From: Tubulanus polymorphus
Lineage: Eukaryota > Animalia > Nemertea
Reading direction: 5' to 3'
DNA length: 64,000 nucleotides
Assembly: GCF_964204645.1 (NCBI RefSeq)
Contig: NC_134029.1
Coordinates: 8,148,850-8,212,849 of the forward strand
Position numbers and translations under genes: made by a program. A model generated the notes under the pieces. It searched no databases, was not told the origin of the DNA, and saw only the letters and a list, made by a program, of their open reading frames with translations. Shown one piece after another: positions 35,101-57,669 of the stretch (the stretch's first letter is position 1; the number at the start of each line of letters is the position of its first letter).

Positions 35101-36142
35101 ACTTCGTTTCCACTATAAACTAATAGTCATCTTCAGGAATACCTCATAAACATTAAATCAATAAACTATTAACTTAGGGGAAACTTTTCGAACTTTTTAT
35201 ATCAGTGTGGGATTCTCTATTTTTTGCACAACACGAAATAGAGTTTCACCCATTTCAAAACTGCTCAAATTGAAAGTGACTGTAATGCTGAATACAACAG
35301 GACACAGCCTAAATACAGTGACCATATGAGTCGACAGCTCTGTAAAGGCCTATTATTCAATGGCTTATCTTGACGTACCGAATAACTTGATTCATTTGAG
35401 ACAATTTCTCAGCCATCGCCGGATGGTTCGGGCCGTAACGATGTCCGCAGTGGTCGACGCCGAGAAAATGAGCGACCAACACGTCCCAGTCGTTCATTTT
35501 CATTTCCGGCATCAAATGCCGAAGAATTCCGTCGTCGATGGTGTGCAGGTCTTTGACGTTGAACGACGGAAAATGATACGCTTTCCGAAAGCGATTCGGA
35601 AACAGACCCATCCACGTATCGTCGCCCATGAACGTGATCTTTTTGCCGTTTTTCGCCAGCTGGTCGACGAAATTATCCTCAGTAATCTCGGTACTGGCGA
35701 AATTCGAACCGGCGTCGACGAAAGTCGGTAAGCTGCCGGTCGTCATTCCCTTCAGCCGCTGCATCGTCGTCGTCGGTGGATCCGCGACGAATTTATAAAG
35801 GCGAGAATTACGCGGGAACTTTTTCAACAAATGCGTCACGTGTTTGAGCTTGTTCGCGTACGGCGGCGACGCGGCGTCGTTACGAATCGTGGCGTTGTGT
35901 TTGATGAAATCGTAGCGTAACGCGTCGATGATTAGCACGACGGCGCGTTTGTACCGCGCATGCATCCAACAACCGGCGTGGCCGTGGTCGTCGTTCTGCA
36001 CGTGTTTGAGGTCGGTATCGCATTCGCTGGCACGTTCGATTACGAATCGATTCAACAGAAAGCCTTTGGTGAACAGATATATCCCCAACGCGTAAATGCA
36101 CCCGGTCCAAACTATAATTCCTATTAACGTGCAATTTTTCAT
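29149..36142 (-). CDS. PIGO: GPI ethanolamine phosphate transferase 3, ~1089 aa; exons 35379-36142, 33953-34112, 31664-33425, 30869-31128, 30413-30523, 29149-29361
   Basis: Motifs LIIDALRYDF, ADPPTTTMQRLKGMTTGSLPTFVDAGSNF, HFLGVDHCGHRYGP, GDHGMTRSGDHGG, FFATGHQ...WDAAFVG, HRRHLMVWKIFAPRFIFE; all splice phases consistent. Confidence 0.95.
33650..33940. mobile_element. Old degenerate copy of the piggyBac-type MITE
   Basis: TTAA flanks; shares TCTACAC..CAGTGCG, GTGTAGACGCACT, GGGTGGAATT and TTTTCAAAT blocks with 7849-8143. Confidence 0.6.
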
Positions 36143-38033
36143 TTTGAACTGTATTTCTTTCGACAAAATTCGAAGGGCATGTAAATTTGTTAGGGTTTAA
36201 GGCGAATTATCATGTTATCTTCGATCGTTTGCACGCATTCATTCGGGCCAAATTGCCATTTGGCACAATTAGCGCGACGACCTTGAAAACATGTAATTTC
36301 CTAAACTACGGTCTTTTTGTATTCCTCGTATACGGACTCAATTCAATCCAATTCAATGTATTTATTCGTTTTATCTCACACCGGGCCGGTGACCAGCATT
36401 AAATTATTGTCGAGTGCCGGATATCTTATCGTGTTTCGTAGGACGAAGGCTGGTTTTGCCTCGCCGATAAGAAACTAATAACAAAAAACCCAGTTGTTTA
36501 TGGGTTATCATTTTCGAGAGTCGCCGGCCTCTCAGTCAGAAAGCCGGATCACTAACGTGATCGACGGACATGCGGCATCCTCGCTTGGCAGGGTTTGATT
36601 GCACACCATCTGAATCTGACGCCAAAACAAAGCCTGGCCGCAAACCCTTCATTGGTCTATACCATCGCCCAAGACAGGCCCGTTGGAAGTAATTACTTCA
36701 AAACGTCCACTGCAAGATATCCAAGCAGACTAGATGAGGTCCGAAATACAATATTTCATCCGATAGAATTTAGTGAAACAAAACCACAACGTTTCGGGTG
36801 TTGACTAACTATATTTTATTTTTGTCCCGGAGATGGCTATTAGAATATAGTCGAAACGTCGAATTAGTTCAAGTAAACGTTTTCGGACTTTATATCATCG
36901 TTTCGGTTTCACTAAACTTCCGCATTTCGTCGATTAGTGAAAAAATAAATTGTCCATGTGATTCCTCATAGACGGTTCTCTATATCTCAGACCAAACGAG
37001 ATACAATCCTAATTCTTGGTATGGATACACATCCCCCATCTTAATACGTCAGAGGCGAAACTTGGTGAAGCGCACAGTAAAAAAAATCCCATTTTTTTAA
37101 AGTTTTGATAAATAAATAGGGCCGGGCTCTGCACTCAATGATCTTGAAATTTTACCAGTAAAAAACAAGGTTTTTTGGAATGTACTAGATGGAAGGCACC
37201 TGCGCGTGTTCGACTTGATACAAAGAAAATCAACCAATCGAAAAATTCGGTGATCAAATGGCTAAAATTCGAGAATCAACATTTTTTAGAAACGTAACAT
37301 GGATGATGTTACACAAAGGATTGTATCCGTTTCGAATACCAAATGCAGGGCTGAAAAATTCTAGACGATGCTAACATTTTGCCGACCAAATATTTTTTGT
37401 GAAATACATCTGCGTAACTCTCAGAATGGTACATTAGATCACTTAAACGACATATCCATAACATATTTCATGATAGGCCATTGACGAGTCACAACCACTC
37501 CTCGATCTGAAATATAGTCCCGTGCAATCGATGATATACATTGATTTTCTAAGTTCCTGGGTGTTTTTCAGTCCTAGAACCTGCTGCACCCTTGTTTTGT
37601 AGAGATACACACAGTGCTGCTTTATCCCAGACATTCCCCACTCCCCCAACAGCTTTAGGACGAATAATATAAAATCAAACCACCGAAATGGCGATGCAGC
37701 CGGGCAAAGTCCGTTGTTAAGGCCATTTCAAGAGTTTCATTCTCATCGTTCCCTGTGGTGATACTCCCACCAACGTATTTAACTGCCTATGACATGAAAT
37801 AAATTTACTTTTGCAATTTAATCGATATGCCCATCAGTGAACCATTAGAGGTAAAGGTGTCTCATTTCAGAAGTAATACACGCTAAAACTGCTATAAAAC
37901 GTTAATTCATTTTTACAAATGCATAAACTGTACTTAAACAGCTTTCCCCGATTGCGATATTCCTGCAAGCTTTTAAATTCGACCAATCATCGTTCTACCC
38001 CGCTTTCTATTTCGTCCCCGCTCAAAACACGCG

Positions 38034-39074
38034 ATGGAGAACTCGACCTCGACGAAAACGGAACTGTGCGAGTTACCGCCTTATAACAGCGACTTCAGAT
38101 TCAGTATCATCTTGTACACGTGCATATACGGCCCAATAATATTGGCCGGTGTTATCGTCAACGTTTTGAACCTTTTAGTTATAAATCGCTTAAAAAATCC
38201 AGTTTATACCACCATCAAAATTTTAGCTGCTTTCGACTTATCCTTTATGTTGTCCGCGCTGTTTCTGTACCCCATAAGGACATTGTACTTGTACGGCCTG
38301 TTAGGTGAAATACTTTATCACATAAACGACTGGTATTTTGGATGGTGGTTCATAACACTTTTTCAACCGTTTTTCTACGCTACGCAAATGGCACGAAACT
38401 GGTCGATCATCCTTATAAGCTTAGAGCGGCTAGTCGTCGTGGCTTTCCCGTTGAATTACAAACGGATATGGAATTCGAAGACGCTCGGATTTCTTCTTTT
38501 CGCAATCATCGTAACGAGTATATTTTCGAATTGGAATCATTTCGTACCCGATGTGCTGCCCGGTTTGTGGCAATGGCCGTGTTTGAAGTCGGGTCAATTC
38601 GCCTACACGATATTTTTTGCCGAAACGCCCGTTACGCGTTTCTCAGTGCCCCGAGTTCAGTACAACGACGTATATTTGTTGTATGTCATCGGCACAGTTG
38701 CTCTTCCTTACCTTATGATGTGTGTGATAAACACGGCTTTGGTTGTGGCGTTGAATTTAGCCAGCAAACGCAGAAAGGAAATCACGACGATTGACAAATC
38801 ATCGGGCAAAGATGTTCAAATTCTGAAAATGGTCGGTGTTGTTTTAGCTATTTTCTTCATTTGCGAAGCCCCAGCAGTTATAGAACGTCTCGAAGGTCTA
38901 ATCAGAGGAAAAGAAACACCTTTGACCCACGAACAACGTATGGCAATGCGTAAATTCGCGTTAGCGCTTTCGATGTTCGACTCAGTTGTTAACTTCTTCG
39001 CTTATTGCGCCGTAAATAGGTCGTTCAAGCAAGCATTTGTTGAAATCTTCAAACGCAACCAACTTCGCGGATAA
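38034..39074 (+). CDS. Intronless rhodopsin-class GPCR, FMRFamide-receptor/Srw-like (peptide or chemosensory), 346 aa
   Basis: Seven hydrophobic segments; GVIVNVLNLLV (TM1), LAAFDL (TM2), ISLERLVVVAFPL (DRY variant), FFICEAP (TM6), DSVVNFFAYC (NPxxY variant). Confidence 0.9.
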   Translation: MENSTSTKTELCELPPYNSDFRFSIILYTCIYGPIILAGVIVNVLNLLVINRLKNPVYTTIKILAAFDLSFMLSALFLYPIRTLYLYGLLGEILYHINDWYFGWWFITLFQPFFYATQMARNWSIILISLERLVVVAFPLNYKRIWNSKTLGFLLFAIIVTSIFSNWNHFVPDVLPGLWQWPCLKSGQFAYTIFFAETPVTRFSVPRVQYNDVYLLYVIGTVALPYLMMCVINTALVVALNLASKRRKEITTIDKSSGKDVQILKMVGVVLAIFFICEAPAVIERLEGLIRGKETPLTHEQRMAMRKFALALSMFDSVVNFFAYCAVNRSFKQAFVEIFKRNQLRG

Positions 39075-40404: not shown

Positions 40405-40810
40405 TATCGAATATATTATCGAGAAGTCGAGCTCATAAAAATGAAAAAAAATCTCGCACCTGAATTCATCTTTACTTTTACTCACTCGCCCTCTCAACTT
40501 CTGATATGAAATCCCACTTTCCCTATTACTTCTAATAATTTCATATAAATGAACATTATTTACATGAATATCATATATTTGAAAATCAATTATATATTAA
40601 TGATAAAAGTGTGAGTAAAGTGCGAGAAATAATTCATATTTTAACAGATTTCGAATAAAAAAATATGTAAAATAAATGGACAATTAAAAGAATATAACAA
40701 AACGAGTAATTAACGATTCTTGATTTTTAAACATAAAAAGTGTGAGTAAAGTGTGATTGAAATTATTTATATTTTAAACATATTTTAATATTTATATTTG
40801 AATGAGTTAT
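40405..40810 (+). mobile_element. Diverged relic of the terminal region of the 49063-54095 element family
   Basis: Shares GTCGAGCTC.TAAAAA.TGAAAA, CCCTATTACT, AAAAGTGTGAGTAAAGTG and AATATTTATATTTGAATGAGTT with 49100-49533. Confidence 0.75.
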
Positions 40811-41389
40811 GGTGCTTTTTTCGAATCTGCATGGCGCTTTACCAAAGCCTTTCTGATCTACCATCAGATGATCCCAGCTATAGAATCTGTTGAATTGTTA
40901 AAATTTGTTAATTGGGCGGCAAGCATTTTTAATCATTCTTCCAATTTGGTGCCGTTTTTGACAATACTTTGGTGTTGGCATATCGCTATGTAATATTTGT
41001 TGTGGATATCGCAATTAATTATTTTGGTAATTCGTCTTAACATCGAAATTTTATTTAAAAAAATAATACATACATTAATATGTAGGAATTAATTCCAGGC
41101 GTTTAGCCTTTGATTTCCTACTAGTCCCGCTCCTACAACATTTCTTTAATTACTTCATACATAAAAAGCAGATATGTTTTTTCTATCGCATGTTCCAAGG
41201 AAGATGTTCGCAGAAAGCCCGAAATCTTTTTTCTTTTCTAATATGTTTGATATATCATACATTGTGATATATGTTTAAACCAATAATGATATTTTGGTAC
41301 TATATTACCCCAAAATTAACGGAACTCAAGGGATAAACAAAGGTTGAGGACATCCAAAATTGATACCACGCACGCACGTGATTATGCAC

Positions 41390-42715
41390 GCCAACGTTTT
41401 GAACCTTGAAGTCACCAATCGCTTAAATAATTCAGTTTATACAACCTTTAAAACTTTAACTCCCTTCGACTTATCCACGTTCGTTGCGCCCAAGGACGTA
41501 CTTGTACGGCTTGTTAGGTGGAATACGTTAGCACCTTTACGCCGAGACAACCAAGCCAAACCGTAAAGTTGATAGATATAGGCCGGACGCCCGTGACATC
41601 CGACAGTTTATTGACTACGGCTTGTTAGGTGGAATACGTTAGCACCTTAACGACTGGTATTTTGGTTGGCGGTTCATAATACTTTTTAAACCGTCTTTCT
41701 ACGCTACGCAAACGAACTGCAAACTTTTAAGGCAATATTTGAGTAGATAGGTGCAAGCCCTACGGGACTGAACTTCCCCATTGATCAGAGATATAGTAAA
41801 ACCTTGGAGTAATCATTTGACAAATGATTACTCCAAGGTAAAACGCACTAGGGAACGTGCGCTTCATGGGCCGCGGTAACCTGACCAGAGGGTAAGAAAA
41901 GCAACCCCTCGACAGTAGCAACCCAACGGTTATCACAATCGTTGAAACTAAAATCCACACCCTGAAAAAAATCGTTCCGTATCCCTAGGTAATAAGATTG
42001 TCATGGAGGCAACTTATAAAAAAAGTAATGGGGTTTACCTTGAAAAATGTTTACATATGTGACTGTCTAGAATTTTGCACAGTAAATGTAAATTCTGCGA
42101 TTTTTCGCAGAGTGTCGCGGATTTAGCATTGTATAAGCCGTGCAAAAGTTTCATCATTATATTTGGTTACAACTTTTATACCGGTACAGGTATTTTAAGA
42201 CTTTCTAGCTTTTTGCATCCGATGAGAAGATGGCATTCATTAACATTATGCGGGCTTCACAAAATTTACCACTTCATTTCCTTCATCTTAAAATTCATCA
42301 TTCCAGGTCTAAGTTTGGCCACTTGTTTGGTAACAAAACCTACTTGTAAGATACAAGTTTGTCATTATTAGTAATTCGTGACCAAAAATTTTGTTTGTCT
42401 TGATCTTTAAGATGTTATAAACTATTACTTTGGTTATTCCAAATGTGATGTGCACCCGACTCATAAATGGTATTCTTAATGAATCTTAGTCAAGGGCTCG
42501 TGTAATATACCATTTTCATCAAGTTTTAGAGGCAGCCTATAGACGCTATAACTTAATTTAGACGCATTGTCTTGTATGAGGTGAGCCCAGAATTGGACAG
42601 CTTTAATCCGTTTGTCCGCAGCGCCACGTAGTGAGAATAGCCGTCGTGGTTTACGCATTGAATTACAAACGGATATGGAATTCGAAGACGCTCGGATTTC
42701 TACTTTTCTACTTTT
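41390..42715 (+). pseudogene. Fragmented GPCR pseudogene (pieces 41390-41712 and 42640-42715) split by unrelated insertions
   Basis: Homology to 38160-38500 with indels; a separate 3'-end fragment lies at ~44008-44105. Confidence 0.8.
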
Positions 42716-43310: not shown

Positions 43311-46300
43311 TTTGTGCTAAGAACTGCCAATGACTTATTTTCTATGAGGTGTTTAATCTACGAATGTCGTTCGATGCCGAAGCGCGCATGACAATATCAT
43401 GTACGTATAATGACATCCCTGTACTCGGGTGCGCCAGTGTAGGCCTTCATGTGTAACTGATATTTTAGGAGAATGTGCTTTACAAAAGCCATTCTGATCT
43501 TTCATCTACGACTCTCAATTTCTTCAATTTCACGACTTAACTAAATTGATTTTTCATTAGTACGTAAGGGATTAAGTTTATTCTGGTTACCGACCTTGTA
43601 TAATCGAGGCTTCTGTTTTAAATTCATTCATTTAATTATCATTACTCATTTCTATCGACTTATAAAAACAAAATCATAAAGTTTCTTTTTTCTCCTTTAA
43701 TGATTTAAATTCTAGATACACATCGGGGTCACAGCCCTCCAGCCGATACGCAACAGAACACACTCCTAAGATGCACGCAGCCCTCGAGCCCGCGCCCGGG
43801 AGGTAATAAATCCCAATAGGCAAACACAATCTGGTCCGTGTAAGTAGACTCCGAGGCACACAGTCGATAACAGGACACACAGTTCCGAGAGACACGCAGC
43901 CTCGCAGAAGCACGCCCGACAGCCAAATTGCACAGGGACCTGACACAAAAAGTGTTTGATCCCAGTATCCTAGGTACTATATATAAAAAGATTTTGAAAA
44001 GTGTCAGTTATTGCGCCGTGAATATAGGTCGTCCAAGCAAGCATGTGTCGAAATCTTTGAATGCTACCAACTTCGCAGATAAAAACAGAATTAAGTATGC
44101 GCGTTAATATGGTTTGCCTTCTACATCAACATCCACCCGAGAAAAAACTACAATAAACTATCGGACTAGTTACACGTAGAAAACGAGCAAAAATACAAAA
44201 ATGGACAAAATCATCTTCAACCTTGTAATATAGCTATTTCCAAAATTTCGATGTACTAAATTAGGCAGCCAAGAAAATTCACCCCAATCAGTCGCTTGCC
44301 GGTTCAGACTGAATGGAAGATTGTTTGAATGAACCGGATCAACCGAATTTCCGATGTATGTACCTCGATTCAAACAAAAAATTCTGTAAACTCGACCGCC
44401 GATCACGCAACGATATCTGTACTTCAATTTCCGATTTCAAAATCAAACCCCAGGCGCTAACGTATTCCACCTAACAAGCCGTACAAGTACGTCCTTCTGT
44501 TTCGCTCCCGGCAGGTGTGGTGGGTCTGTAAGGGACAGACACTCAATCAGAAAATCAGACGAAATTTACCAACCAAATAAATAACAGGGACAATCCTTAT
44601 TTTAAGATTTAAAAAAAAAATGGTTCGCCTGCACACTGGCCAATCATTTTCAGCGGGGGTCAATCTCTATTTCAAGATCGAAAAAATATGGTTTGCCTAT
44701 CATGTTTATAGCATAGGGGTACTTTTATCCAATATAGTAAGATGCGATTTCACCTCTTCTTTGTTTACAATACATTTTCATGGACTGCGCTTATGACCTT
44801 TCACGATCACGTCTTCTCCTTTGGACCAGAACCCAGCAAACGTACTGCCAGTGCTCCTGATTTTGCAAATCTAGATTCGAAACAAGATTTGTTGAATTTG
44901 AAATATTTCGATTATAATACTTAATTTGCGTCATCCCAGTATCATTTGGACAAAAAGCATTGAAATAAGTCTTGGTATGCATAATTGAGCAATAGCAAGT
45001 GCTTCCATTAGCTTTTGTCCCACGCGCAATTTCACTGACGTAAATCTATCAAAGAGACAAAATGAAATGAATAACCAACTCTTTCTGCGTACGATCAAAA
45101 ATACATAGGAGCCATCAGTGAATAGACCCGTTTTTATCGTCGGTCTCTTCTCAACAAAAAAAAACAATATTTTCATGTGCAAATAGATAGACCTGACCCG
45201 GGAGTCAGTTTCATAGGCTGCTTGAATTAGGGCCGCGATAACCGTTATAGCTTACTATCCCCATCTAATATTGTTTCAGGAAATATAGGTACATGCATAT
45301 AGCTATAGAATCAGATATGAGCGATTACAAAACCAGAATGAATCTAATAGCTATTGTTCTAAAGATTTCGTTCGCAAATCTCCATTTTATGTGAAATGAA
45401 ATATCATTTCCTTAATAATGATGTATAGATAACGTTCATCAAGCAAGGGACTGCAGAGTTTTGTTTCTAAAAACAACGAAAGGTATGGCAACAATGAGGA
45501 CTTCGAGGGACAGCCAAAATATGGCGCCTGGAAACTGGAAACTTATTATATGTATGTATTGAGTAAGCCTTGGGTTAGATTTAGTACTGGCTATTCATCC
45601 GTATACTCCTATCTCAAATCATTAAAATGTGGCTTTTACTTCGTCAATGTCAGCCTATATACATGTAAATTCCGTACGTTGATTCTTTTGAAAATCGACG
45701 AATGGAGATCTACGGATGTTTTACAGTTGTTGTCCTTTCTATGCTTACGGTTCCAAGAATTATTTTAGAATATTCGCTATTTCCCACTTGTGCCGAAAAG
45801 AGTTGATAATGTTTCAGTTGAATGACATTTACATTTACTATGTGTAAAAGTTCGGCTGTTGCCACGACGGTGAATGGTTGGTTGCAATTATAGCGGAATT
45901 GTCTTTTGCTATAAAGTTTTAAAATGATCTATACTTATAGTTTTCTATTTGGTCGAATAAATTTTTATCAAGAATGACATCGGATCGAGGTATAGTTTCC
46001 AATGCAGTGCCGTAGTACGCAAATATTAACTAATATAAAGGCCCATAACTGAAAAAAAACATTCTTAGTTTCTGTGTCCTGCATTTATTGCTTTAATACC
46101 TTTAGTCCATGACGATATTGCAAATTTTCGTTCGGGAAGATGCACACAACGTCTCTGTTCATATTCTGCACAGTTTTACTGATAACAACGTAGAAAACAT
46201 GATTTTGTTGCTTTAGATGTAGCATTCCGAGTTGATGAAAAAGACGAAGAGAAAAAACACGTGGTTCTCGCGGGTATTAAGCGGATTATGGTACGATGGC

Positions 46301-46930
46301 TTGAAAGCATTTCGTAACAAGATTAATGATGTCATTAAAGCCATTGAACTGCAATATATCTATGCCCTTTAGTTATGGAAATACATAAGCCTAAACAGCG
46401 AAATAGGCGTTTGCTAATAAGGCTAGAAATGATACCTTGTTTCTATTAGTCGGTCAATCTCTTCTGTAAATTGCAATGAAATTTGCGCACCGTTGAACGA
46501 TACATTGTCGAAGAGTAAGAAAACTAACTTGAAAAAATCCAGCCATAGAATATATTTGATAGTACCGGTATTCAATTGCAATTGTTATTTCGAAATTTGA
46601 ATAATGATGACGTAGTGCACATCTACTCACACAGAACGCCGTAGATAACCTACATAATGCATAAAAACATTATTGTAACGGAATTCTGAGATATTCATCG
46701 TTGACACATACCTTCTAATCAAAATAACATCGTTAATTCGACGGGCGTCTTCGAACATCACCCCTCAGAGGAACCTGATGAACCGAGACTCTGCGTCACG
46801 GCTCGAATCCCCTGCCAGCTATAGGGCGGGGAGCTAATCATGCAATATCGTCAAGCAAAAATTTTTGAAATAATCATGAAGTTTCTGCATGGAAAAATGG
46901 TCCAGATAACGACTATCAAACTAGACTCAC

Positions 46931-47806
46931 CGTTATAAACCAGCGAAACGAAACCTTCTAGAATATTGAACTTCCAGTAACCGATTCTTTCTCGCACATT
47001 AGTTACGAACTATAACTGAAAATTAGTTGAATTTACGGAAACTAGGAAATATCATACGTACCCGGAACGTTACAAAATTCAAATCGCTTCTTAGGATCTG
47101 TTGTGTAACACCATATGCATTTGTCGCGGTCAGGATTACGACAGTAATTCTTTGCTTTAACGAGGTCTTTTTCTGGGAAATTGCGAGGGTTGCTTGCTGA
47201 AGCGATTTTCCTATGGGGGAAATTGACGGCCCATCTTTGACACGTTCGACCAGAAGCCGTCTTATTCACTTTCCCGGAATAGTAAAATCCCTTATGCGTC
47301 AGTGGGCACTTAGAAAACGCTGAAATCAACCGATTCCGTTTCATGTTTTTTTTTCGTACACAAACAAAAACAACGCACCTAATGATAAATTATTTCACCA
47401 GTTTTTTACTAAAGGCAATTAGTGCGTTCATCCCCGGTTGAAATAGTCACTGGCCCGACGCCTGATTAACTTCGCGCACTATCTCTTCATGTAAATCACC
47501 GCCGACAAAATATCAGAGGATACATGACTGTTTGCATCAAACTTGGCAAAATCAGTCCAGTTTTTTCAGCATACGCCTTCCAAGATTTTGCTCGATCTTT
47601 GGATATGATATGAGTAGTTTTTCATTAAGACATGAGTATATTGAAAAAGAATTAATCTTTGAATGTGTATTTGTATTGTTTCACATGAATGTGATAGATG
47701 ATTCTACAAAAATGAACTTACCCGATTCGCTGTTGTAGTAGAATAATAAGATAGAAATAGACACATCCAGAACTGCAAAACGAGAACGGCGAGTTCTGAA
47801 AACCAT
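46931..47806 (-). pseudogene. Secreted kringle-domain gene copy 2; exons 47722-47806 (signal peptide), 47062-47319 (kringle); downstream exons degenerate
   Basis: MVFRTRRSRFAVLDVSISILLFYYNSES|AFSKCPLTHKGFYYSGKVNKTASGRTCQRW...NYCRNPDRDKCIWCYTTDPKKRFEFCNVP, phase-1 exons. The next exon appears to have lost its acceptor and frame; it could still encode a short protein. Confidence 0.7.
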
Positions 47807-48069
47807 TTTTTGAGCTAAGAACTGCCAATGACATATTTTCTACGCGCTGGTTAATCTACGAATGTCGTTCGATGCCGAAGCGCGCATGACAATATCATCT
47901 GCGCATCAATGCACTGTTGTGACATCACTGTAAGAGTACACGGGTACGCCAGTACGTGAGTTACTGATTTTTTTAGGAGAAGGTCATTTACAAAAGAAAT
48001 TCTGATCTTTCATCCACTTTTTTCGGTTTCACGACTTGTGAAACTGAATTGACTTTACTCTTCACCAGT

Positions 48070-48360
48070 AACTGATTACCTGTCTCCAAACGTGCAATTT
48101 GGAAACCGGGCATTTCAATTTGCAGCTCCTGCTTTATGGAATGAAATTCCCATGAGCATTCGACTAAGTCCGTCTGTTGAATGTTTCAAACATACTTTTT
48201 TAGAAAAACTTATAACTGATCTTTTTATCTGCTATTGTATTTTAATATTATGTTTTAATACGGGTAAAATGACTTATATCTATGTAAAGCGCACCGATTA
48301 CCATGTCGGGGTGCGCTATATAAGAATATATATATCATTATTATCATTATTAAGATTATT
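48070..48360 (+). mobile_element. 5'-truncated LINE 3' end (L2/Crack/CR1 group)
   Basis: FGNRAFQFAAPALWNEIPMSIR matches the ORF2 C-terminal motif; followed by TGTAAAGCGC...GCGCTATATAAG and a (TTA)-like tail; absent from the paralogous units. Confidence 0.75.
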
Positions 48361-48537
48361 CCCGACCTGGTAACTGAGGCAAAATATCTTTTTTTAAGAA
48401 GTATAGTTTTCTAAAAACTGCTATAAAAAGTTAAATCATTTTCACCAGCTTTCCCAGTTACGATTGCGATATTCTTTCAAGCTTTTCATTGGACCAATCA
48501 TTGTTCTACCCCGCTCTTTATCCACGCACAAACATGC

Positions 48538-49062
48538 GATCTCGACCTCGACCTTGACGAAATCGGCCTTGCGCGAGTCACCACCCTAGCAGCGTCTTCA
48601 GATTCAGTATCATCTCGTACACGCGCTTATATGGATCAATAATATTGGCCAGTGTAATCGTCAACGTTTTGAACCTTTTAGACAGGAATTAAACAATCCT
48701 GTTTATACCACCTTCAAAATTTCAGTTTCCTTCGACTTATCCTTTATGGTTCTCCGTGCTTTTTCTGTACCCCAAGGACGTTATACTGGCCTGTTAGGTT
48801 AATCACATAAACGACTGGTATTTTGGATGGTGGTTCATAACACTTTTTCAACCGTTTTTCTACGCTACGCAAATGGCACGAAACTGGTCGATCATCCTTA
48901 TAAGCTTAGAGCGGCTAGTCGTCGTGGCTTTCCCGTTGAACAACAAACGGACATGGAATTCGAAGACGCTCGAATTTCTACTTTTCGCAATCATCGTAAC
49001 GAGATCTTCGATCATTACCCGATGCTGCCCGGTTTGTGAAAATGGCCGTGTTTGTAGCCGGG
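48538..49062 (+). pseudogene. GPCR pseudogene copy interrupted by the 5-kb element; resumes briefly at 54102-54111, 3' half deleted
   Basis: Near-identical segment MARNWSIILISLERLVVVAFPL; multiple frameshifts relative to 38034-38600. Confidence 0.88.
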
Positions 49063-49405
49063 AGTAATAGGGGTAATGGGCTTTCATACCAAAGGTCGAA
49101 CGGTCGAGCTCGTAAAAAATGAAAAACATGAAAATAATAACAATTTCTACTTGAATTACTCGCGAAACTCATAAAAAATGAAAAATAATTCTCACACACT
49201 CGAATTTATTTTTCATTTTTACTCGCTAGAAAAAAGTGTGAGTAAAGTGTGAGTGAAATAAATTCGAGCGTGTGAGAATTATTTTTCATTTTTTATGAGT
49301 TTCACTCCTAATTCAAGTAGAAATTGTTATTATTTTCATATTTTTCATTTTTTAATGAACTCGACCATTCAACCTTTAACCTGAAAGCCCATTACCCCTA
49401 TTACT
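49063..49405. repeat. 343-bp imperfect palindrome at the left terminus (mirror copy 53753-54095)
   Basis: AGTAATAGGGGTAATGGGCTTTC ... GAAAGCCCATTACCCCTATTACT with ~150-bp complementary arms. Confidence 0.92.
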
Positions 49406-49526
49406 CTTAAAATATTCATATACATGAATAAAATATATATGAATAACATATAAATCGGATAGATTATTCAATATAAAAGTGTGAGTGAAATAATTCATAT
49501 TTAAAACATTGAATATTTATATTTGA

Positions 49527-50177
49527 ATGAGTTTTAATAAAAATTTTGTTATAAAAATGAAGAAAGAAGAAGAAGAACCCAACTTTAAAATCGAAATCAA
49601 TGAAACCAATAAATCATTTTCACAGTTTTACATTAAAAATTATATTTCAGCAACAAATTTAGTGTCCGCAAGACATTATAAAATCGATAACATAACTATG
49701 ATTAATCAAATATCATCAAATGAAACATATTTAATTACTGAACTAGTAGATACTTTTGATAATGGCGTTAAAAATCCTAAAATATTCAATACAGTTTTAA
49801 ATTTTAGAGGAACATTAGATGAAAACATAATTAATATTCTTAAAACTCCTTTCAATGAAAGAAATGATGATATAATACTTTCAAAAGATTACAATGATTT
49901 GATTAACTTAAGAATTGAAAAAAGACAATTATATTATTTCAATTTTGATAATAAACAAATTATCTATAATGAAAATTCATCAAATATTGGAATTCAATGT
50001 GAATTAGATAATGAAAAATCATTTAAAGATATTGCAGTTCAATGTAATTTAGATGATGAATTTAGAAAATTCAATCCTAATGAAAAAGTGCATTGTTATT
50101 GCGGAGGTAAATATTTAAAATCACATAAATCAAAGCATTATGAAACAATTAAACATAAAAACTGGCGTAAAGAGTAA
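49527..50177 (+). CDS. Element ORF1, 216 aa, C-terminal CxC-H-H zinc-finger-like motif
   Basis: Open 651-bp ORF in very AT-rich DNA; KVHCYCGGKYLKSHKSKHYETIKH resembles the C.CG...H..T.KH motif of large DNA virus/Polinton small proteins; internal repeat IQCELDNE/VQCNLDDE. Confidence 0.65.
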   Translation: MSFNKNFVIKMKKEEEEPNFKIEINETNKSFSQFYIKNYISATNLVSARHYKIDNITMINQISSNETYLITELVDTFDNGVKNPKIFNTVLNFRGTLDENIINILKTPFNERNDDIILSKDYNDLINLRIEKRQLYYFNFDNKQIIYNENSSNIGIQCELDNEKSFKDIAVQCNLDDEFRKFNPNEKVHCYCGGKYLKSHKSKHYETIKHKNWRKE

Positions 50178-50229
50178 CAATTCTACATTATAATTATTGA
50201 ATTGAGTTAAATGATTTAAATATCTAATA

Positions 50230-52052
50230 GACTGTTAAAATGATAAATTGTTTGACAGTTGAAATGATAAATTGTTTGACAGTTGAAATGATAAATTGTT
50301 TGACAGTTGAAATGATAAGACAGTTGAAATGATAAATTGTTCGACTGTTGAAATGATAAGACAGTTGAAATGATAAATTGTTTGATAGTTGAAATGATAA
50401 ATTGTTTGACAGTTGAAGTGATAAATTGTTTGACAGTTGAAATGATAAATTGTTTGACAGTTGAAATGATAAATTGTTTGACAGTTGAAATGATAAATTG
50501 TTTGACAGTTGAAATGATAAATTGTTTGACAGTTGAAATGATAAATTGTTTAACAGTTGAAATGTTAAATTGTTTGACAGTTGAAATGATGAATTGTTTG
50601 ACAGTTGAAATGATAAATTGTTTGACAGTTGAAATGATAAATTGTTTGACAGTTGAAATGATAAATTGTTTGGCAGTTGAAATGATAAATTGTTTGGCAG
50701 TTGAAATGATAAATTGTTTGGCAGTTGAAATGATAAGACAGCTGAAATGATAAATTGTTTGACAGTTGAAATGATAAATTGTTTGACAGTTGAAATGATA
50801 AATTGTTTGACATCTGAAATGATAAGTTGTTTGACAGTTGAAATGATAAATTGTTTGACAGTTGAAATGATAAATTGTTTGACAGTTGAAATGATAAATT
50901 GTTTGACAGTTGAAATGATAAATTGTTCGACTGTTGAAATGATAAATTGTTTGACAGTTGCAATGATAAATTGTTTGACAGTTGAAATGATAAATTGTTC
51001 GACTGTTGAAATGATAAATTGTTTGACAGTTGAAATGATAAATTGTTTGGCAGTTGAAATGATAAATTGTTTGACAGTTGAAATGATAAATTGTTTGACA
51101 GTTGAAATGTTAAATTGTTAGTCAGTTGTAATGATAAATTGTTTGACAGTTGAAATGATGAATTGTTTGACAGTTGAAATAATAAATTGTTTGGCAGTTG
51201 AAATGATAAATTGTTTGACAGTTGAAATGATAAATTGTTTGACAGTTGAAATGATAAATTGTTTGACAGTTGAAATGATAAATTGTTTGACAGTTGAAAT
51301 GATAAATTGTTTGGCAGTTGAAATGATAAATTGTTTGACAGTTGAAATGATAAATTGTTTGACAGTTGAAATGATAAATTGTTTGGCAGTTGAAATGATA
51401 AATTGTTTGGCAGTTGAAATGATAAGACAGCTGAAATGATAAATTGTTTGACAGTTGAAATGATAAATTGTTTGACAGTTGAAATGATAAATTGTTTGAC
51501 CTCTGAAATGATAAATTGTTTGGCAGTTGAAATGATAAATTGTTTGACAGTTGAAATGATAAATTGTTTGACAGTTGAAATGATAAATTGTTTGACAGTT
51601 GAAATGATAAATTGTTCGACTGTTGAAATGATAAATTGTTTGACAGTTGAAATGATAAATTGTTCGACTGTTGAAATGATAAATTGTTCGACAGTTGAAA
51701 TGATAAATTGTTTGGCAGTTGAAATGATAAATTGTTTGGCAGTTGAAATGATAAATTGTTTGACAGTTGAAATGTTAAATTGTTAGTCAGTTGTAATGAT
51801 AAATTGTTTGACAGTTGAAATGATAAATTGTTTGACAGTTGAAATGATAAATTGTTTGACAGTTGAAATGATATATTGTTTGACAGTTGAAATGATAAAT
51901 TATTCGACAGTTGAAATGATAAATTGTTTGACAGTTGAAATGATAAATTGTTTGGCAGTTGAAATGATAAATTGTTTGACAGTTGAAATGATAAATTGTT
52001 TGACAGTTGAAATGATAAATTGTTTGACAGTTGAAATGATAAATTGTTTGGC
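50230..52052. repeat. 24-bp tandem array (ACAGTTGAAATGATAAATTGTTTG)n, roughly 75 units
   Basis: Direct reading; occasional 17-bp deletion variants (GATAAGACAG) and recurring variant blocks. Confidence 0.97.
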
Positions 52053-52174
52053 CGTAAATTTAATTGTTATTTGATTTAATCATTTAAAAGTTTAATATTT
52101 TCAAAATGATTATAAAATATTTAATTAAAAACTAGCAAATATTTTATAAACTGTTTAATTTTTCTCTTAAATAA

Positions 52175-52393
52175 ATGGATGGTTTCATCCCAACTGGGAA
52201 AAGTGATTTGAAACATTATTTAGTAGCAGGTGGATTAATATTGGCTGCGCTTTTCTTTTATTATGAAAATATCAGTAAGGATTTGATTAATGAAAATATA
52301 AAATTGAGCAAGAAATTAAAGAAGTTAAATGGAAACAATCACAGAAAGAATAACAATAAAAAAGTTAATGATTTAAATGATTTGGAGGATTAA
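52175..52393 (+). CDS. Element ORF2, 72 aa, single TM helix plus basic coiled-coil-like tail
   Basis: YLVAGGLILAALFFYY hydrophobic stretch; TAAATG start context; tightly packed with ORF3. Confidence 0.5.
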   Translation: MDGFIPTGKSDLKHYLVAGGLILAALFFYYENISKDLINENIKLSKKLKKLNGNNHRKNNNKKVNDLNDLED

Positions 52394-52439
52394 AACAGCA
52401 TCTTTTAATTTAATTTATTCTATATATTTTGACTATAAA

Positions 52440-52745
52440 ATGAGTGAAAATAAGGTATTAGAAATATTACATCTAATATATAAAAATCAACAGAATATTA
52501 AATCAATTATTATGCTTACAGGTTTATTTTCATTCTCAGTTTATACTATAAAACAGTTGTTAGAATTCTATGATTGCTGTAAAATTAGATACACTGAATT
52601 AATAGAAAATATGAATTATATTTCAGATAGATTGAATAATATTAAATGCTGTGAAATATGTAATAAAAGATATAAAAATTTAAAGAGTTTAAAAACTCAT
52701 AAATATATTCATGAACTTGATGAAAAATTATATGAATCAAAATAA
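52440..52745 (+). CDS. Element ORF3, ~101 aa, hydrophobic segment plus C2H2 zinc finger
   Basis: ATG at 52440 (MSENKV...); CEICNKRYKNLKSLKTHKYIH is a canonical C2H2 pattern. Confidence 0.62.
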   Translation: MSENKVLEILHLIYKNQQNIKSIIMLTGLFSFSVYTIKQLLEFYDCCKIRYTELIENMNYISDRLNNIKCCEICNKRYKNLKSLKTHKYIHELDEKLYESK

Positions 52746-52840
52746 GAAATCGACTGTTAAATTAGCTGAAAATATAAAATATATTAGTTGAAATGTATGA
52801 AAATGAGTAAATTATATTTACGTTAAAAAGGAGGGTTGAG

Positions 52841-52952
52841 GTATCAATGTATTAAATACGTATTAAATACGTATCAAATACGTATTAATGGTATTGAATA
52901 CGTATCAAATACGTATTAATGGTATTAAATACGTATTAATGGTATTAAATAC
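52841..52952. repeat. Minisatellite of mixed 11/9-bp units (GTATTAAATAC / GTATTAATG)
   Basis: Direct reading. Confidence 0.85.
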
Positions 52953-53274
52953 ATATTATGCTTTATTTCCGAAAATGAAGTAACAGAAGTAATTTATGTT
53001 TTAATTCATTCAAGTATGATATTGTAAATTCTTTACATTTGACTAGGATAATACAAGAGTGATATTAGTTAGTTGGCTTATTCAATAAGAGAAACAATGA
53101 AATAATACAAGAGTGATACTAACAGTTAAAGTTATTGAATTTCTTGTTAAATCTATTTGAATTCTAGTCAATTCTTGTTAACCAATAGCGCGAATAGAAA
53201 TCAAAAAGATTTAGATAAAAAAACAATAAGTTAATTAAGTTAGTATTAGATAAAGTAACTCATTGTTTTTTTAT

Positions 53275-53631
53275 TTAAAGTATTATATCATCATTTCTTT
53301 CATTGAAAGGAGTTTTAAGAATATTAATTATGTTTTCATCTAAAGTTCCTTTAAAATTTAAAACTGTATTGAATATTTTAGGATTTTTAACGCCATTATC
53401 AAAAGTATCTACTAGTTCAGTAATTAAATATGTTTCATTTGATGATATTTGATTAATCATAGTTATGTTATCGATTTTATAATGTCTTGCGGACACTAAA
53501 TTTGTTGCTGAAATATAATTTTTAATGTAAAACTGTGAAAATGATTTATTGGTTTCATTGATTTCGATTTTAAAGTTGGGTTCTTCTTCTTCTTTCTTCA
53601 TTTTTATAACAAAATTTTTATTAAAACTCAT
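53275..53631 (-). pseudogene. Truncated duplicate of ORF1 N-terminus inside the right TIR (118 aa)
   Basis: Identical to ORF1 aa 1-118 except R->K; stop created at the TIR junction. Confidence 0.8.
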
Positions 53632-56031
53632 TCAAATATAAATATTCAATGTTTTAAATATGAATTATTTCACTCACACTTTTATATTGAATAATCTATC
53701 CGATTTATATGTTATTCATATATATTTTATTCATGTATATGAATATTTTAAGAGTAATAGGGGTAATGGGCTTTCAGGTTAAAGGTTGAATGGTCGAGTT
53801 CATTAAAAAATGAAAAATATGAAAATAATAACAATTTCTACTTGAATTAGGAGTGAAACTCATAAAAAATGAAAAATAATTCTCACACGCTCGAATTTAT
53901 TTCACTCACACTTTACTCACACTTTTTTCTAGCGAGTAAAAATGAAAAATAAATTCGAGTGTGTGAGAATTATTTTTCATTTTTTATGAGTTTCGCGAGT
54001 AATTCAAGTAGAAATTGTTATTATTTTCATGTTTTTCATTTTTTACGAGCTCGACCGTTCGACCTTTGGTATGAGAGCCCATTACCCCTATTACTGCCGG
54101 GTCAATTCGCCGATGTCGAGACGATTCTCTGTAACCCGAGTGCATGTGTCGAAAACGAATTAACTATTTCGTATATCGTCATTTTGTTAATCTGGTATCT
54201 AATCTATTGCTGTAAATTATTCAGGAACTAATTGGAATGAAATGAAATTTCATGTCTTGATTGTTTACGATTTATTTTCATGTACTGCGCGTTATATGAC
54301 GTATCGTGGTCATTCCATTATTTCAAAGCTGAAAAAACGTGTTTGCAACAGAACAGGAACGGAATCAGTGCTCCTTATTATGCAAAATGTATATTCGAAG
54401 AGCGATCTGCTAAGTTTGAAATATTTCGATTACTTATTCAAGTTGCATAAACCCAGCTTTTTGGCAATATGAAGTCCTTCCATTAGCTTTTATTTTACGC
54501 GTTATTTAACTGGTACATGTCATGAAACCTCGCGAAATGAATAACATTCTAAGTGGCCCGAATCAGCCAACATATGAAACCCAAGGACCGCATTTTTTAT
54601 CGCGCGTCAAAAAATATCTTGAATTTACTTCCACCTTGAAATATTTCAGTTTCCGTGAACCCAACTTCTTTATTTTTTCCAGAGGTTAAAAACCGTTATT
54701 AGCAATTTACGTGTGCGTTTGAATTTTTGAATTTTTGAACATTTTCCTCACAACTGATCTCTGACAACTTGAGTTTTTGAGATTACGCGCCAGAGAGGAC
54801 TTGTGCGAACCGCCATTTCACTAAACATCGAGATCTCTTCAAATTTTCAGTATGGAGAATTCTTTTCATCCCAATATCTTATTTCTTGTGTGTACTGTAT
54901 TGGCGGGAGAATACTTCGTCTAGCTTGGTTTCCGGTTTGGCCCGCCATAGTGAATATGAAATCGGCGACAGAGGACCACCATCGACAAAACGCAGTGAGA
55001 AATATAAAAACAATTTAAATATTCATTGCATATGCGATAGCAGTTATGCTACAAGTATTTCGAGGATATACACGAGATGAAAATATGATACGGTTAATTA
55101 ATTCATATGCAACTATCGGTTATCGCAAATCGTTGATGTAGCCTTTACCGTGTGCATTGTTAGCCCATATAAACATGTAAATTCCGTATGTAATTCTATT
55201 GAAAATGTTGTTTTTTTCTATGCTTATCGCACGAAGTATGATTTTAGGCTGTTTCCCACTTGCTTGTGCCGAATGGAGTTGTTGATGTTTGAGTTTTGAA
55301 TAATTCTCACTAAAACGTAGCTATAAGCTCAGCTCTTGCCGAGGCTGAATGGTTGGTATAGTATTTTAGTAATTTAAATTCTTTATTCTAGTAAGTTAAA
55401 TAATTTGTACATAGTTTTCTGTTTGAACGGATCTTATCAAGAATGACAACGGATCGAGGCATATGCAGTTCTAGTACGCAAATGTAAATCGTCAACTTAT
55501 AAGGCCCATAATTGAAAAATAACATTCTTAGTTTGTTTTCTGCTTCTATTGTTTCAAAATCTTAACTCCTAGGCGACATTGCCAATGTTCTTGAAGCCCT
55601 TCGTTCGGGAAAGTGCAAGCAACGTCTACAACGGCATATTCCGTGTGGTTTTGCTGATAATAACGTAGAAAACATATTTTTGTCGCTGTATGTTGTGACC
55701 TTCGGTATTATTGTGTGCAACGACTTTAAAGCTTTCGTTACAAGATTAATGACGTTTAAGCTACTGAACTGCAATATCTATGCCCTTTAGATATGGAAAT
55801 ACATAAGCCTAACCAGCGAAATAGTTGTCTACTTAAGAATTTGCGTAAGTATTAGCACCGTTGAATGATACAATGTTGCATAGTAAAATATTTCTTAGGC
55901 TAAACAAAAATGATACTTTGTTTCTCCTAATCGGCCTGGTCGCTTTTGTAAACTGCAATGAAATGTGTAATCTGTTCTATTTGTATTTCTATAGCTGCCA
56001 GTTGAGATACGAGGAATTAAACTAGACTTAC

Positions 56032-56869
56032 CGTTATCAACTAGCGAAACGAAACCATCTAGACTAATGAAATTTGAGTCAACTGATTCTTTCTCATAAA
56101 CTAACTACGAACTATAATCTAAAATTAATTGAACTTACGGATACCTGAAAATATCATACGTACCCGGAACGTTACAAAATTCAAATCGCTTTTTAGGATC
56201 TGTTGTGTAACACCATATGCATTTGTCGTGGTCAGGATTACGACAGTAATTCTTTGCTTTAACCAGGTCTTTTTCTGGGAAATTGCGAGGGTTGCTCGGT
56301 TGAGAGCTTTTCCTATGGGGTAAATTGACGGCCCATCTTTGACATGTTCGACCAGAAACCGTCTGATTCACTTTCCCGGAGTAGTACAACCCCTTATGTG
56401 GCAGTGGGCACTTGATGGACGCTGAAATAAACCGATACCGTTTCATGTATTTTAGCACAGCGGATAAAAACTCGCTTAATGAGAAAATATTTCCCTGATT
56501 TTCGACTAAAGGTAGGCCCATTCATCCCCGGTTGAAGTCACTGGCTCGACGCTGGCACACCACTCTCTTCAGGCACACCACCGCCGAAAAAATGGTATAT
56601 GTTTCCATCAACAAAATAGGCCCCATTTTTTCTGCAAACGCCTTCCTCTTGATTCTTGGATTATTAGATATTCGAGTAGTTTTTCATGAAGGTATAAGTG
56701 TAAGTAACAAAGAATCAATCTTCTTTTGTTTGTATGTATTGTTTCACAAGAATGTTATAGATGATTCTACAAAAATGAACTTACCCGAATCGCTGTTGTA
56801 GTAGAATAATATGATGAAAATTAACACATCCAGAACTGCCAAACTAGAATGGTAAATTCTGAAAACCAT
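56032..56869 (-). pseudogene. Secreted kringle-domain gene copy 3; exons 56785-56869, 56164-56421, 56032-56100
   Basis: MVFRIYHSSLAVLDVLIFIILFYYNSDS|ASIKCPLPHKGLYYSGKV...FEFCNVP|VYEKESV: three exons in frame but the last kringle Cys appears as Tyr, and the next candidate exon (~55570-55768) opens with a stop. Status uncertain. Confidence 0.65.
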
Positions 56870-57669
56870 TTTGTGCTAAGAATTTTGCCGATGACTTTTT
56901 TTGTGCGCTGGTTATTCTAAGAATGCCAAAGCGCGCATGGCGATATCATCTGCACGCCGATATAGCGTGTTGACATCCTGCAGGACTCTCCGTATAGGTA
57001 TATACGCCAGTACACATGTTACAGATTTTCTAGAAGATGCTTTCTTGTCGTTCATCAGCTACCTACAGTTTCTTCAATTTCACGACTTGTGAAACTTAAT
57101 TGACTTTTCAATGGTAAGAGATGAAGATTATTCTGGTTACCGACCTGGTAATCGAGCCTTCCATTTTAATTTGGATGACTGATTATCAGATGTCGACTGA
57201 TTCTGTACGTAAATTTGTCGATTTAGACATCCTGAACATATCTGAAATTAACCCTCATACAATAACCCGTTCGAAAATCATCCCCAAAGAATAACCATCC
57301 TCCTTTCAAATCGTCCGAGAATAATACACTATCAACTATACAATAATTTTGGCTATTTTCTATACATATAGGGTTAGTAACATAGATTAGAAGGATTTGG
57401 ATATAAGGTAGTCATGTAGTCGGTATATGACTGCCATATGGTTCCTATCTGTTTGACCAGTTCCATTAATTCAAGGGTCAGGGAATTGCCTGCCATTAAT
57501 AAGAGATTTCGTTCGTTTGATCGAAAAGATTATTACGTTCCCAAGAAAAAAAATTATTGGTTCTCGGGCTTCCGTTACGAGACGCTTGTGTGTCAGTGTG
57601 TCTTTCAGCGATTTTGCTTCGTTAATAGTAGGTCGAGCTTGGTTAAACTTTTGTACAATGTTAGTATGG

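Follow-up and report, generated by a model that had tools for sequence, protein, structure and literature searches.

A recent non-autonomous element with Polinton-type ends and long terminal palindromes in the ribbon worm Tubulanus polymorphus

Structure of the element and its ends

The window analysed here is a stretch of 64,000 nucleotides from the ribbon worm Tubulanus polymorphus (RefSeq assembly GCF_964204645.1, contig NC_134029.1, positions 8,148,850 to 8,212,849 of the forward strand); all coordinates below are counted from its first letter. At 49063..54095 it carries a mobile element of 5,033 bp, to which no strand was assigned, inserted into a broken G-protein-coupled receptor (GPCR) gene, of which the part left of the insertion is at 48446..49062 (plus strand). 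A host exon in the window is 100% identical, over 92% of the query, to a protein labelled Tubulanus polymorphus at NCBI; the next best match, from Lineus, has 66%. The element begins with AGTAATAGGG and ends with the reverse complement of AGTAATAGGG, i.e. its termini are AGT at the start and ACT at the end, or AGTAAT..ATTACT in six-base form. The hexamer GCCGGG stands directly on both sides (49057..49062 and 54096..54101, both plus strand). Since this site occurs only once in the intact receptor paralogue at 37977-39074, which is 83% identical to the left flank, the target-site duplication (TSD) is 6 bp long. Stops and frameshifts upstream of this site had broken the receptor gene before the element arrived. 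The boundaries, the six-base duplication, the AG...CT ends and the location within a GPCR pseudogene, all proposed in an initial annotation made from the sequence, were thus confirmed.

The terminal inverted repeats (TIRs) are 819 bp long (left 49063..49881, plus strand; right 53277..54095, minus strand), as first described. They differ at three positions (21, 745 and 752), one more than the two or so spotted initially, and, if one small gap is allowed, the match reaches about 838 bp at 98.9% identity. The GC content of the element is 24% as compared to 39% in both flanks, in agreement with the AT-rich interior that had been noted. The initial annotation had also stated that replication, integration and capsid genes are missing; indeed, no match to a polymerase, integrase, ATPase, protease or capsid was found among the open reading frames (ORFs) of the element, the longest of which, outside a satellite, has 216 codons.

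A feature on which the initial annotation is silent is that the outer 343 bp of each TIR form an imperfect palindrome (left 49063..49405, right 53753..54095, neither with a strand), the arms of which are 84% identical. A perfect 24-bp stem is flush with the tip, and the right palindrome has the same orientation relative to its tip as the left one. As single-stranded DNA the palindrome is predicted to fold into one rod (-129 kcal/mol, z -25.4), and none of 100 shuffled sequences was as stable. In the predicted fold base 1 pairs with base 343, within the perfect stem. In other words, the modelled fold of each strand's 3' end has a paired terminal base facing into the element, which is the geometry of a self-priming hairpin. 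At 49388-49405 the left palindrome repeats the end motif internally, in inverted orientation. There are four occurrences of this motif in the element and five matches in the 64 kb, where 0.03 would be expected; the fifth, with three mismatches, is outside the element at 40513-40530.

The intact receptor gene is followed, 1.3 kb downstream, by a decayed relative of the left end of the element (40420..40810, plus strand; about 70% identical), to which this outlying match belongs. Here the inner end motif leads into the subterminal sequence known from the element, the outer tip is lost and the fold is gone (z -0.9). We also note an 11-base motif that occurs eight times in the window, exclusively in the element (49233, 49244, 49476 and mirror positions 53672-53925) and in the decayed relative, which has two of the copies. 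In the element its sites are the centre of the palindrome and a position 50 bp upstream of the first ORF. The motif is a candidate binding site or promoter.

The family in sequencing reads

Reads were taken from four runs of one study that contain part of the element and from one raw-read run of another sample with the same species label, of which about 12% was read. Four runs were mapped onto the left part of the element and two onto the right part, with the satellite excluded. The single-copy depth, 6.6, was obtained from eight flank bins picked to avoid paralogues and repeats. Relative to this value the depth was about 364-fold at the tip, 186 in the inner arm of the palindrome, 86 in the subterminal sequence, 47 in ORF1 inside the TIR and 43 outside it (at 90% likeness), 30 in ORF2, 25 in ORF3 and 10 in the right interior (at 85% likeness). 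These copy numbers are lower bounds, as diverged copies drop out. The depth is equal across the two halves of ORF1, so most copies carry this gene once and only a minority have the long TIR with a gene in it.

Reads with loose ends stop at both tips of the element (left 1,806+405, right 1,533+588). The loose letters agree with one another at a level of 0.33-0.36, which indicates many different flanks. The size of the family is about 430-550 ends; some flanks recur, so the number of independent sites may be smaller. The three TIR mismatches are private to this copy, i.e. the base of the other arm is found in 263 of 268, 259 of 263 and 2,832 of 2,854 reads, respectively. As regards the TSD across the family, the host letters that prevail next to the tip are self-complementary over exactly six bases in one of the read mappings and nearly so in the other, at an agreement of only 0.34 and with about a 1 in 8 likelihood of arising by chance with A/T letters.

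Presence/absence polymorphism, which the initial annotation had suggested looking for, is visible in run X1. A 1,841-bp contig of this run matches positions 54096-54800 without a difference and then continues leftwards past the TSD into non-element sequence, staying out of the element. From this match we read the contig as an empty allele, in which case the insertion is polymorphic. Together with the hundreds of ends, the Polinton-type TSD and termini and one clearly viral module, the zinc finger of ORF1 described below, these data support the original view of a recent insertion of a trans-mobilised element with Polinton-type cis signals.

The reads also inform on how the ends evolve. In about 86 ends, as in the decayed relative, the inner motif leads on to one and the same subterminal sequence, so this pairing is old and stable. 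A sibling subfamily diverges about 57 bases in at both types of arm, with similar numbers of reads (788 outer, 762 inner), which suggests that the two arms of the palindrome change together. In another subfamily no more than the first ten bases are kept (292 reads). The palindrome has often lost 60-183 bases internally in the reads, and one of these deletions is symmetrical about the centre.

Genes and repeats of the interior

ORF1 (49527..50177, plus strand) encodes 216 amino acids, i.e. an orphan N-terminal part and a C-terminal zinc finger of the viral CxC..H..H type (50094..50156, plus strand) that resembles the C-terminal finger of viral GIY-YIG nucleases. The left TIR takes in the first 118 codons, hence a truncated copy of 118 residues is found within the right TIR (53275..53631, minus strand); judged by read depth, few copies of the family have it. 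A search of 1.84 billion protein representatives gave 14 matches at E<=0.001 and none at 1e-10. All 14 were centred on the finger, and four carry a GIY-YIG domain. The finger pattern was found in 19 viral contigs, in all 19 at the end of a GIY-YIG-type protein; these assignments were made by inspection, and Pfam, run on two of them, was positive in both. Larger ORFs were scanned in 12 of the 19 loci, which revealed one with pPolB and an A32 ATPase, one further A32 ATPase and one topoisomerase II. The one with pPolB, a 14-kb viral contig (L016, 1-14090), carries besides pPolB and the A32 ATPase two GIY-YIG/finger genes and three further finger genes; judging by this gene content it is a Polinton-like virus (PLV) rich in the ORF1-type finger. 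Three other loci (L002-L004) share only the GIY-YIG domain with P0009, have no finger and were set aside.

No relatives were found for the first 165 residues of ORF1. One pairwise alignment suggested that ORF1 is a decayed GIY-YIG nuclease, and profile tests rejected this possibility (130 and 119 of 1,000 shuffled sequences scored equally). The single-sequence fold prediction was unusable (predicted local distance difference test score, pLDDT, 33). From the sequence of its finger, ORF1 is likely to bind DNA. The among-copy variants described here for the three ORFs come from the best 40 of 316 and the best 40 of 342 variant places. Among the variants listed for ORF1, 7 of 19 were silent (p 0.04), and the indels listed for ORF1 and ORF3 are of three bases. 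ORF1 is probably a real, constrained gene.

ORF2 (52175..52393, plus strand) encodes 72 amino acids with one hydrophobic stretch followed by a basic tail. Among the variants listed all eight fall on third codon positions and seven of the eight are silent (expected fraction 0.17, p 3e-5). As its among-copy variants are almost all silent, ORF2 is a real constrained gene, and it is under purifying selection among copies. ORF3 (52440..52745, plus strand, with an in-frame ATG also at 52377) encodes 101 amino acids with a weak, generic C2H2 finger (E 8e-4, below the curated cut-off). Two of its six listed variants are silent and one is a stop (p 0.27), which gives no sign of selection, and its status as a gene is unproven.

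Neither ORF2 nor ORF3 had relatives in the protein and viral-contig searches. Virus-like small ORFs had been proposed for the element as a whole; what holds of this is confined to the last 30 residues of ORF1. None of the three ORFs matched PHROGs or Pfam at the curated cut-off. Word-index protein searches yielded nothing for ORF1 (0 of 92 candidates scored) or ORF3 (0 of 4), and none of six exact sequences (the ORFs of the element and the intact receptor) was present in the protein collection. Scans of viral contigs were equally empty for ORF3 (0 of 13 stretches), ORF2 (0 of 69 stretches) and, in a scan other than that for the finger pattern, the ORF1 finger (0 loci). A PDB sequence search gave two matches at E 0.4, i.e. 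at chance level, and Rfam gave none. A bacterial promoter scan also remained at chance level, with a bacterial model that is not suited to a worm host.

More than a third of the element is a 24-bp satellite (50230..52050, plus strand; 1,821 bp or 36% of the element), which the initial annotation did not mention; it consists of 77 copies with 92% matches and includes a 689-bp block duplication. An 8-codon unit is reiterated in the long frames across it, which were not counted as genes. A short tandem repeat of 11/20/31 bp is located at 52849..52958 (plus strand).

Origin of the family, alternative explanations and host locus

Vertebrate Mavericks have the end motif (AGT)2/(ACT)2 and TIRs of 46-1,447 bp, and are mostly low-copy (PMC8097293); rve integrases produce 6-bp TSDs in PLVs (PMC12220804). 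The element resembles Polintons/Mavericks in the 6-bp TSD, the AG..CT ends, which in that group are typically (AGT)2 or (AG)3 (here AGTAAT rather than AGTAGT, i.e. five of the six bases of (AGT)2 alike), the TIRs of the 100-1,500-bp class that can hold genes, and the intronless ORFs. It is unlike them in size (5 kb versus 13-25 kb), in having no pPolB, rve, ATPase, protease or major and minor capsids, in its 343-bp terminal palindromes, and in belonging to a family with hundreds of ends as opposed to the low-copy vertebrate Mavericks. In other words, it behaves as a non-autonomous Polinton/PLV that is outside the autonomous family. Gene-bearing TIRs and mobile polB-less copies are reported in insect polintons, namely those of butterflies (Pieris) (10.1101/2025.02.07.637071).

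The closest counterparts of the palindromes are in a protist. The virophages of Halocafeteria seosinensis and PLVs of subtype 4 have palindromes in their TIRs beside the TSDs, together with rve and non-pPolB replication genes, and hairpin priming was proposed for them, with accidental annealing named as an alternative (10.64898/2026.07.28.741278). Shared with the ribbon-worm element are the palindrome in the TIR adjoining the TSD, the GC contrast, and the existence of some coreless copies that keep TIRs and TSDs. The differences are the protist host as opposed to an animal, and the full viral gene sets, with rve, helicase/primase and capsid genes, as opposed to none here. An imperfect terminal palindrome is also common to the hairpin telomeres of parvoviruses and poxviruses, and by this analogy folding back would yield a self-priming 3' end; unlike those viruses the element has no Rep/NS1 or resolvase gene, no flip/flop and an integrase-type TSD. 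Altogether, the terminal palindromes point away from canonical protein-primed Polintons and toward the hairpin-ended PLV and virophage types.

The element is a recent non-autonomous member of a large ribbon-worm mobile family, and we consider it fairly probable that it stems from a Polinton-like integrating virus, either stripped down from it or living as its satellite. According to this explanation the rve integrase of a full-length partner would insert the element in trans, recognising the conserved tip. After excision or strand displacement the 3' hairpin would prime DNA synthesis, so that no protein primer would be needed. If the element is a Polinton/PLV derivative integrated by rve in trans, such hairpin priming, suggested by analogy, is a serious possibility that we would not quite call probable. 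Copying of one arm over the other could have produced the long right TIR and with it, in a minority of the copies, a second half-length ORF1. Selection would maintain ORF2, and less clearly also ORF1, as accessory genes. A bolder version, which we hold only tentatively and think rather doubtful, is that an integrating DNA virus with hairpin ends is active in an animal genome and replicates by priming itself through folding back instead of through a protein primer, and that the element is one of its swarm of gene-carrying satellites, i.e. a nuclear counterpart of transpovirons with a selected membrane peptide gene.

A number of observations weigh against derivation from a Polinton-like virus. 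The name Polinton-like would rest on the ends, the TSD, the GC content and one finger, and it presupposes an autonomous helper; membership as a Polinton/PLV derivative is unproven because this helper was not seen. The TSD length was measured on one copy only. Both ends of the present copy share one orientation of the palindrome, i.e. there is no flip/flop. The end motif had no match in viral contigs and one in metagenomes, at the end of a bacterial gene, which was taken as chance. The finger does not single out Polintons, since it also occurs in giant-virus contigs (3 of the 19 finger contigs are named GVMAG, i.e. giant-virus genomes, and one locus has topoisomerase II), and the N-terminal part of ORF1 has no GIY-YIG profile match (130 of 1,000 shuffles were as good). 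The palindrome figured for Halocafeteria has 52 nt as compared to 343 bp here, a more than sixfold difference, and accidental annealing is named in that preprint as an alternative origin. Finally, a palindrome flush with the tip is also the look of a small inverted-repeat transposon, or a ready-made miniature inverted-repeat transposable element (MITE); ends outnumber ORF1 copies about 10:1, with the interiors of most such copies unseen in the reads; and 321 reads have diverse flanks beside the inner type of arm. The latter reads may come from palindromes that stand alone, from ends in flipped orientation or from relatives mapped to the wrong place.

These last points lead to the alternative that survives best, although we regard it as unlikely: a composite cut-and-paste element, in which two 343-bp palindromic MITEs, derived from hAT6 or from a DDE superfamily not yet described, form the ends and move captured viral ORFs and a satellite between them. 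Each 343-bp palindrome taken alone is a complete mini-element with two correct ends, and the excess of ends over ORF1 copies, the frequency of shortened palindromes and the 321 reads are all in line with this explanation. Non-autonomous, high-copy derivatives with long inverted repeats are a feature of MITEs and Foldback-type elements as well. The TSDs of Foldback/MULE elements and Galileo have 7-10 bp. A 6-bp TSD is common to IS3EU, GingerRoot and hAT6, and the other superfamilies with 6-bp TSDs for which ends are stated have TA..TA, TG..CA or TAYGG..CCRTA (PMC10045372, PMC12730594); hAT6 is likened to the element by TSD length, and IS3EU and GingerRoot differ from its AG..CT ends in having TA..TA or TG..CA. 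Against a composite, the inverted repeat goes 476-495 bp beyond the palindrome, into ORF1, and a single conserved sequence adjoins the inner motif in the roughly 86 ends and in the diverged relative. Outer-type ends with host flanks outnumber inner-type ones by 2,121 to 321 reads. Moreover, the ends fit the Polinton motif, and the low GC content and intronless, selected ORFs would fit a viral origin.

It is more improbable still that the element is a transpoviron-like plasmid or virophage remnant that replicates exclusively in the factory of a giant virus of the worm and integrates as a side effect, or a segment of a multipartite integrating virus as the initial annotation had offered. The GIY-YIG/Zn-ribbon arrangement is found in virophages, some polintons and transpovirons (PMC3671162), and transpovirons, which are small and linear, have a Zn-ribbon that stands alone and is related to that of virophages. 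The element, too, is small and has a C2H2 Zn-ribbon minus the nuclease, and this finger may correspond to the ribbons of Sputnik V14 and mavirus MV06. Hairpin ends are a poxvirus and parvovirus trait, and the presence of the ORF1 finger in giant-virus contigs is also consistent with such an origin. However, the SF1 helicase and the DNA-binding transposase subunit that are common to transpovirons are absent, the element is integrated in an animal nuclear genome with TSDs, and hundreds of germline insertions require an integrase acting in the nucleus. The idea of a virus segment has no support: the copy numbers step down from the ends inward (ORF1 about 45, ORF2 about 30, ORF3 about 25, right interior about 10), as expected for deletion or rearrangement variants, and no further segment was seen.

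We give little credence to the idea that the element simply arose by deletion from a canonical pPolB Polinton, with a palindrome that is a frozen accident of fold-back repair and has no role. This explanation shares the integration step with the Polinton-like satellite that we prefer; the ends, the TSD and the TIR length are within the vertebrate Maverick range, accidental annealing is named as an alternative in the Halocafeteria preprint, the palindrome centre is often deleted, and the decayed relative no longer folds. Nevertheless, the same arrangement recurs in that relative at about 70% identity, and the sibling subfamily departs at both arms at the same distance. Palindromes are a source of chimeric long reads, and an assembly artefact was dismissed, except for the exact satellite length, because Illumina reads of another sample cover arms and interior at high depth (all 30 bins on the left side and, on the right side, each bin that belongs to the element, satellite excluded), the arms differ by 16% and the TSD matches the paralogue, which leaves it a practically negligible chance.

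Non-autonomous Polintons of the zebrafish are present in Repbase, so the non-autonomous state alone is not new. The novelty lies in a long terminal palindrome in which an inner end motif is conserved, in a family of this size and in an orphan gene under selection. In the literature listings and papers searched no account was found of palindrome-ended or high-copy non-autonomous Polinton-like elements in animals, or of Polintons in nemerteans. The exit of Polintons/PLVs from the chromosome and their self-copying are still a model without a direct test. The present family reduces an element to the cis signals that are kept, i.e. a ten-base tip and a long fold-back palindrome, and it is high-copy, polymorphic and non-autonomous in an animal host with a public annotated genome. 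If a helper shares the palindromes, hairpin priming can be checked in existing long reads, as flip/flop ends and snap-back molecules. If the partner is instead a cut-and-paste transposase, the signature of AG..CT ends and a 6-bp TSD is shared by elements other than Polintons, a point of relevance to the annotation of repeats.

The surroundings of the element are repetitive. The receptor genes form a tandem array, with the intact single-exon gene at 37977-39074 and decayed copies or fragments at 41389-41712, 42638-42708 and 48446-49062. A host duplication with a spacing of about 9 kb (46000-47930 and 55500-56980, pieces 76-94% identical) covers a kringle-domain ORF (47042-47344), and the element sits within one of the duplicated units. 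In the left flank, the read depth is raised over a short repeat (48227-48345), which one X1 contig seems to lack or to have in another form. At 41801-41839 there is a perfect inverted repeat of 19 bp, its halves separated by a single base. Further host genes in the window are PIGO (30752-36196, minus strand), a C2H2 zinc-finger protein exon (10859-12487) and an exon at 3437-4063 that, by motif, we take to encode a LysM-type membrane protein.

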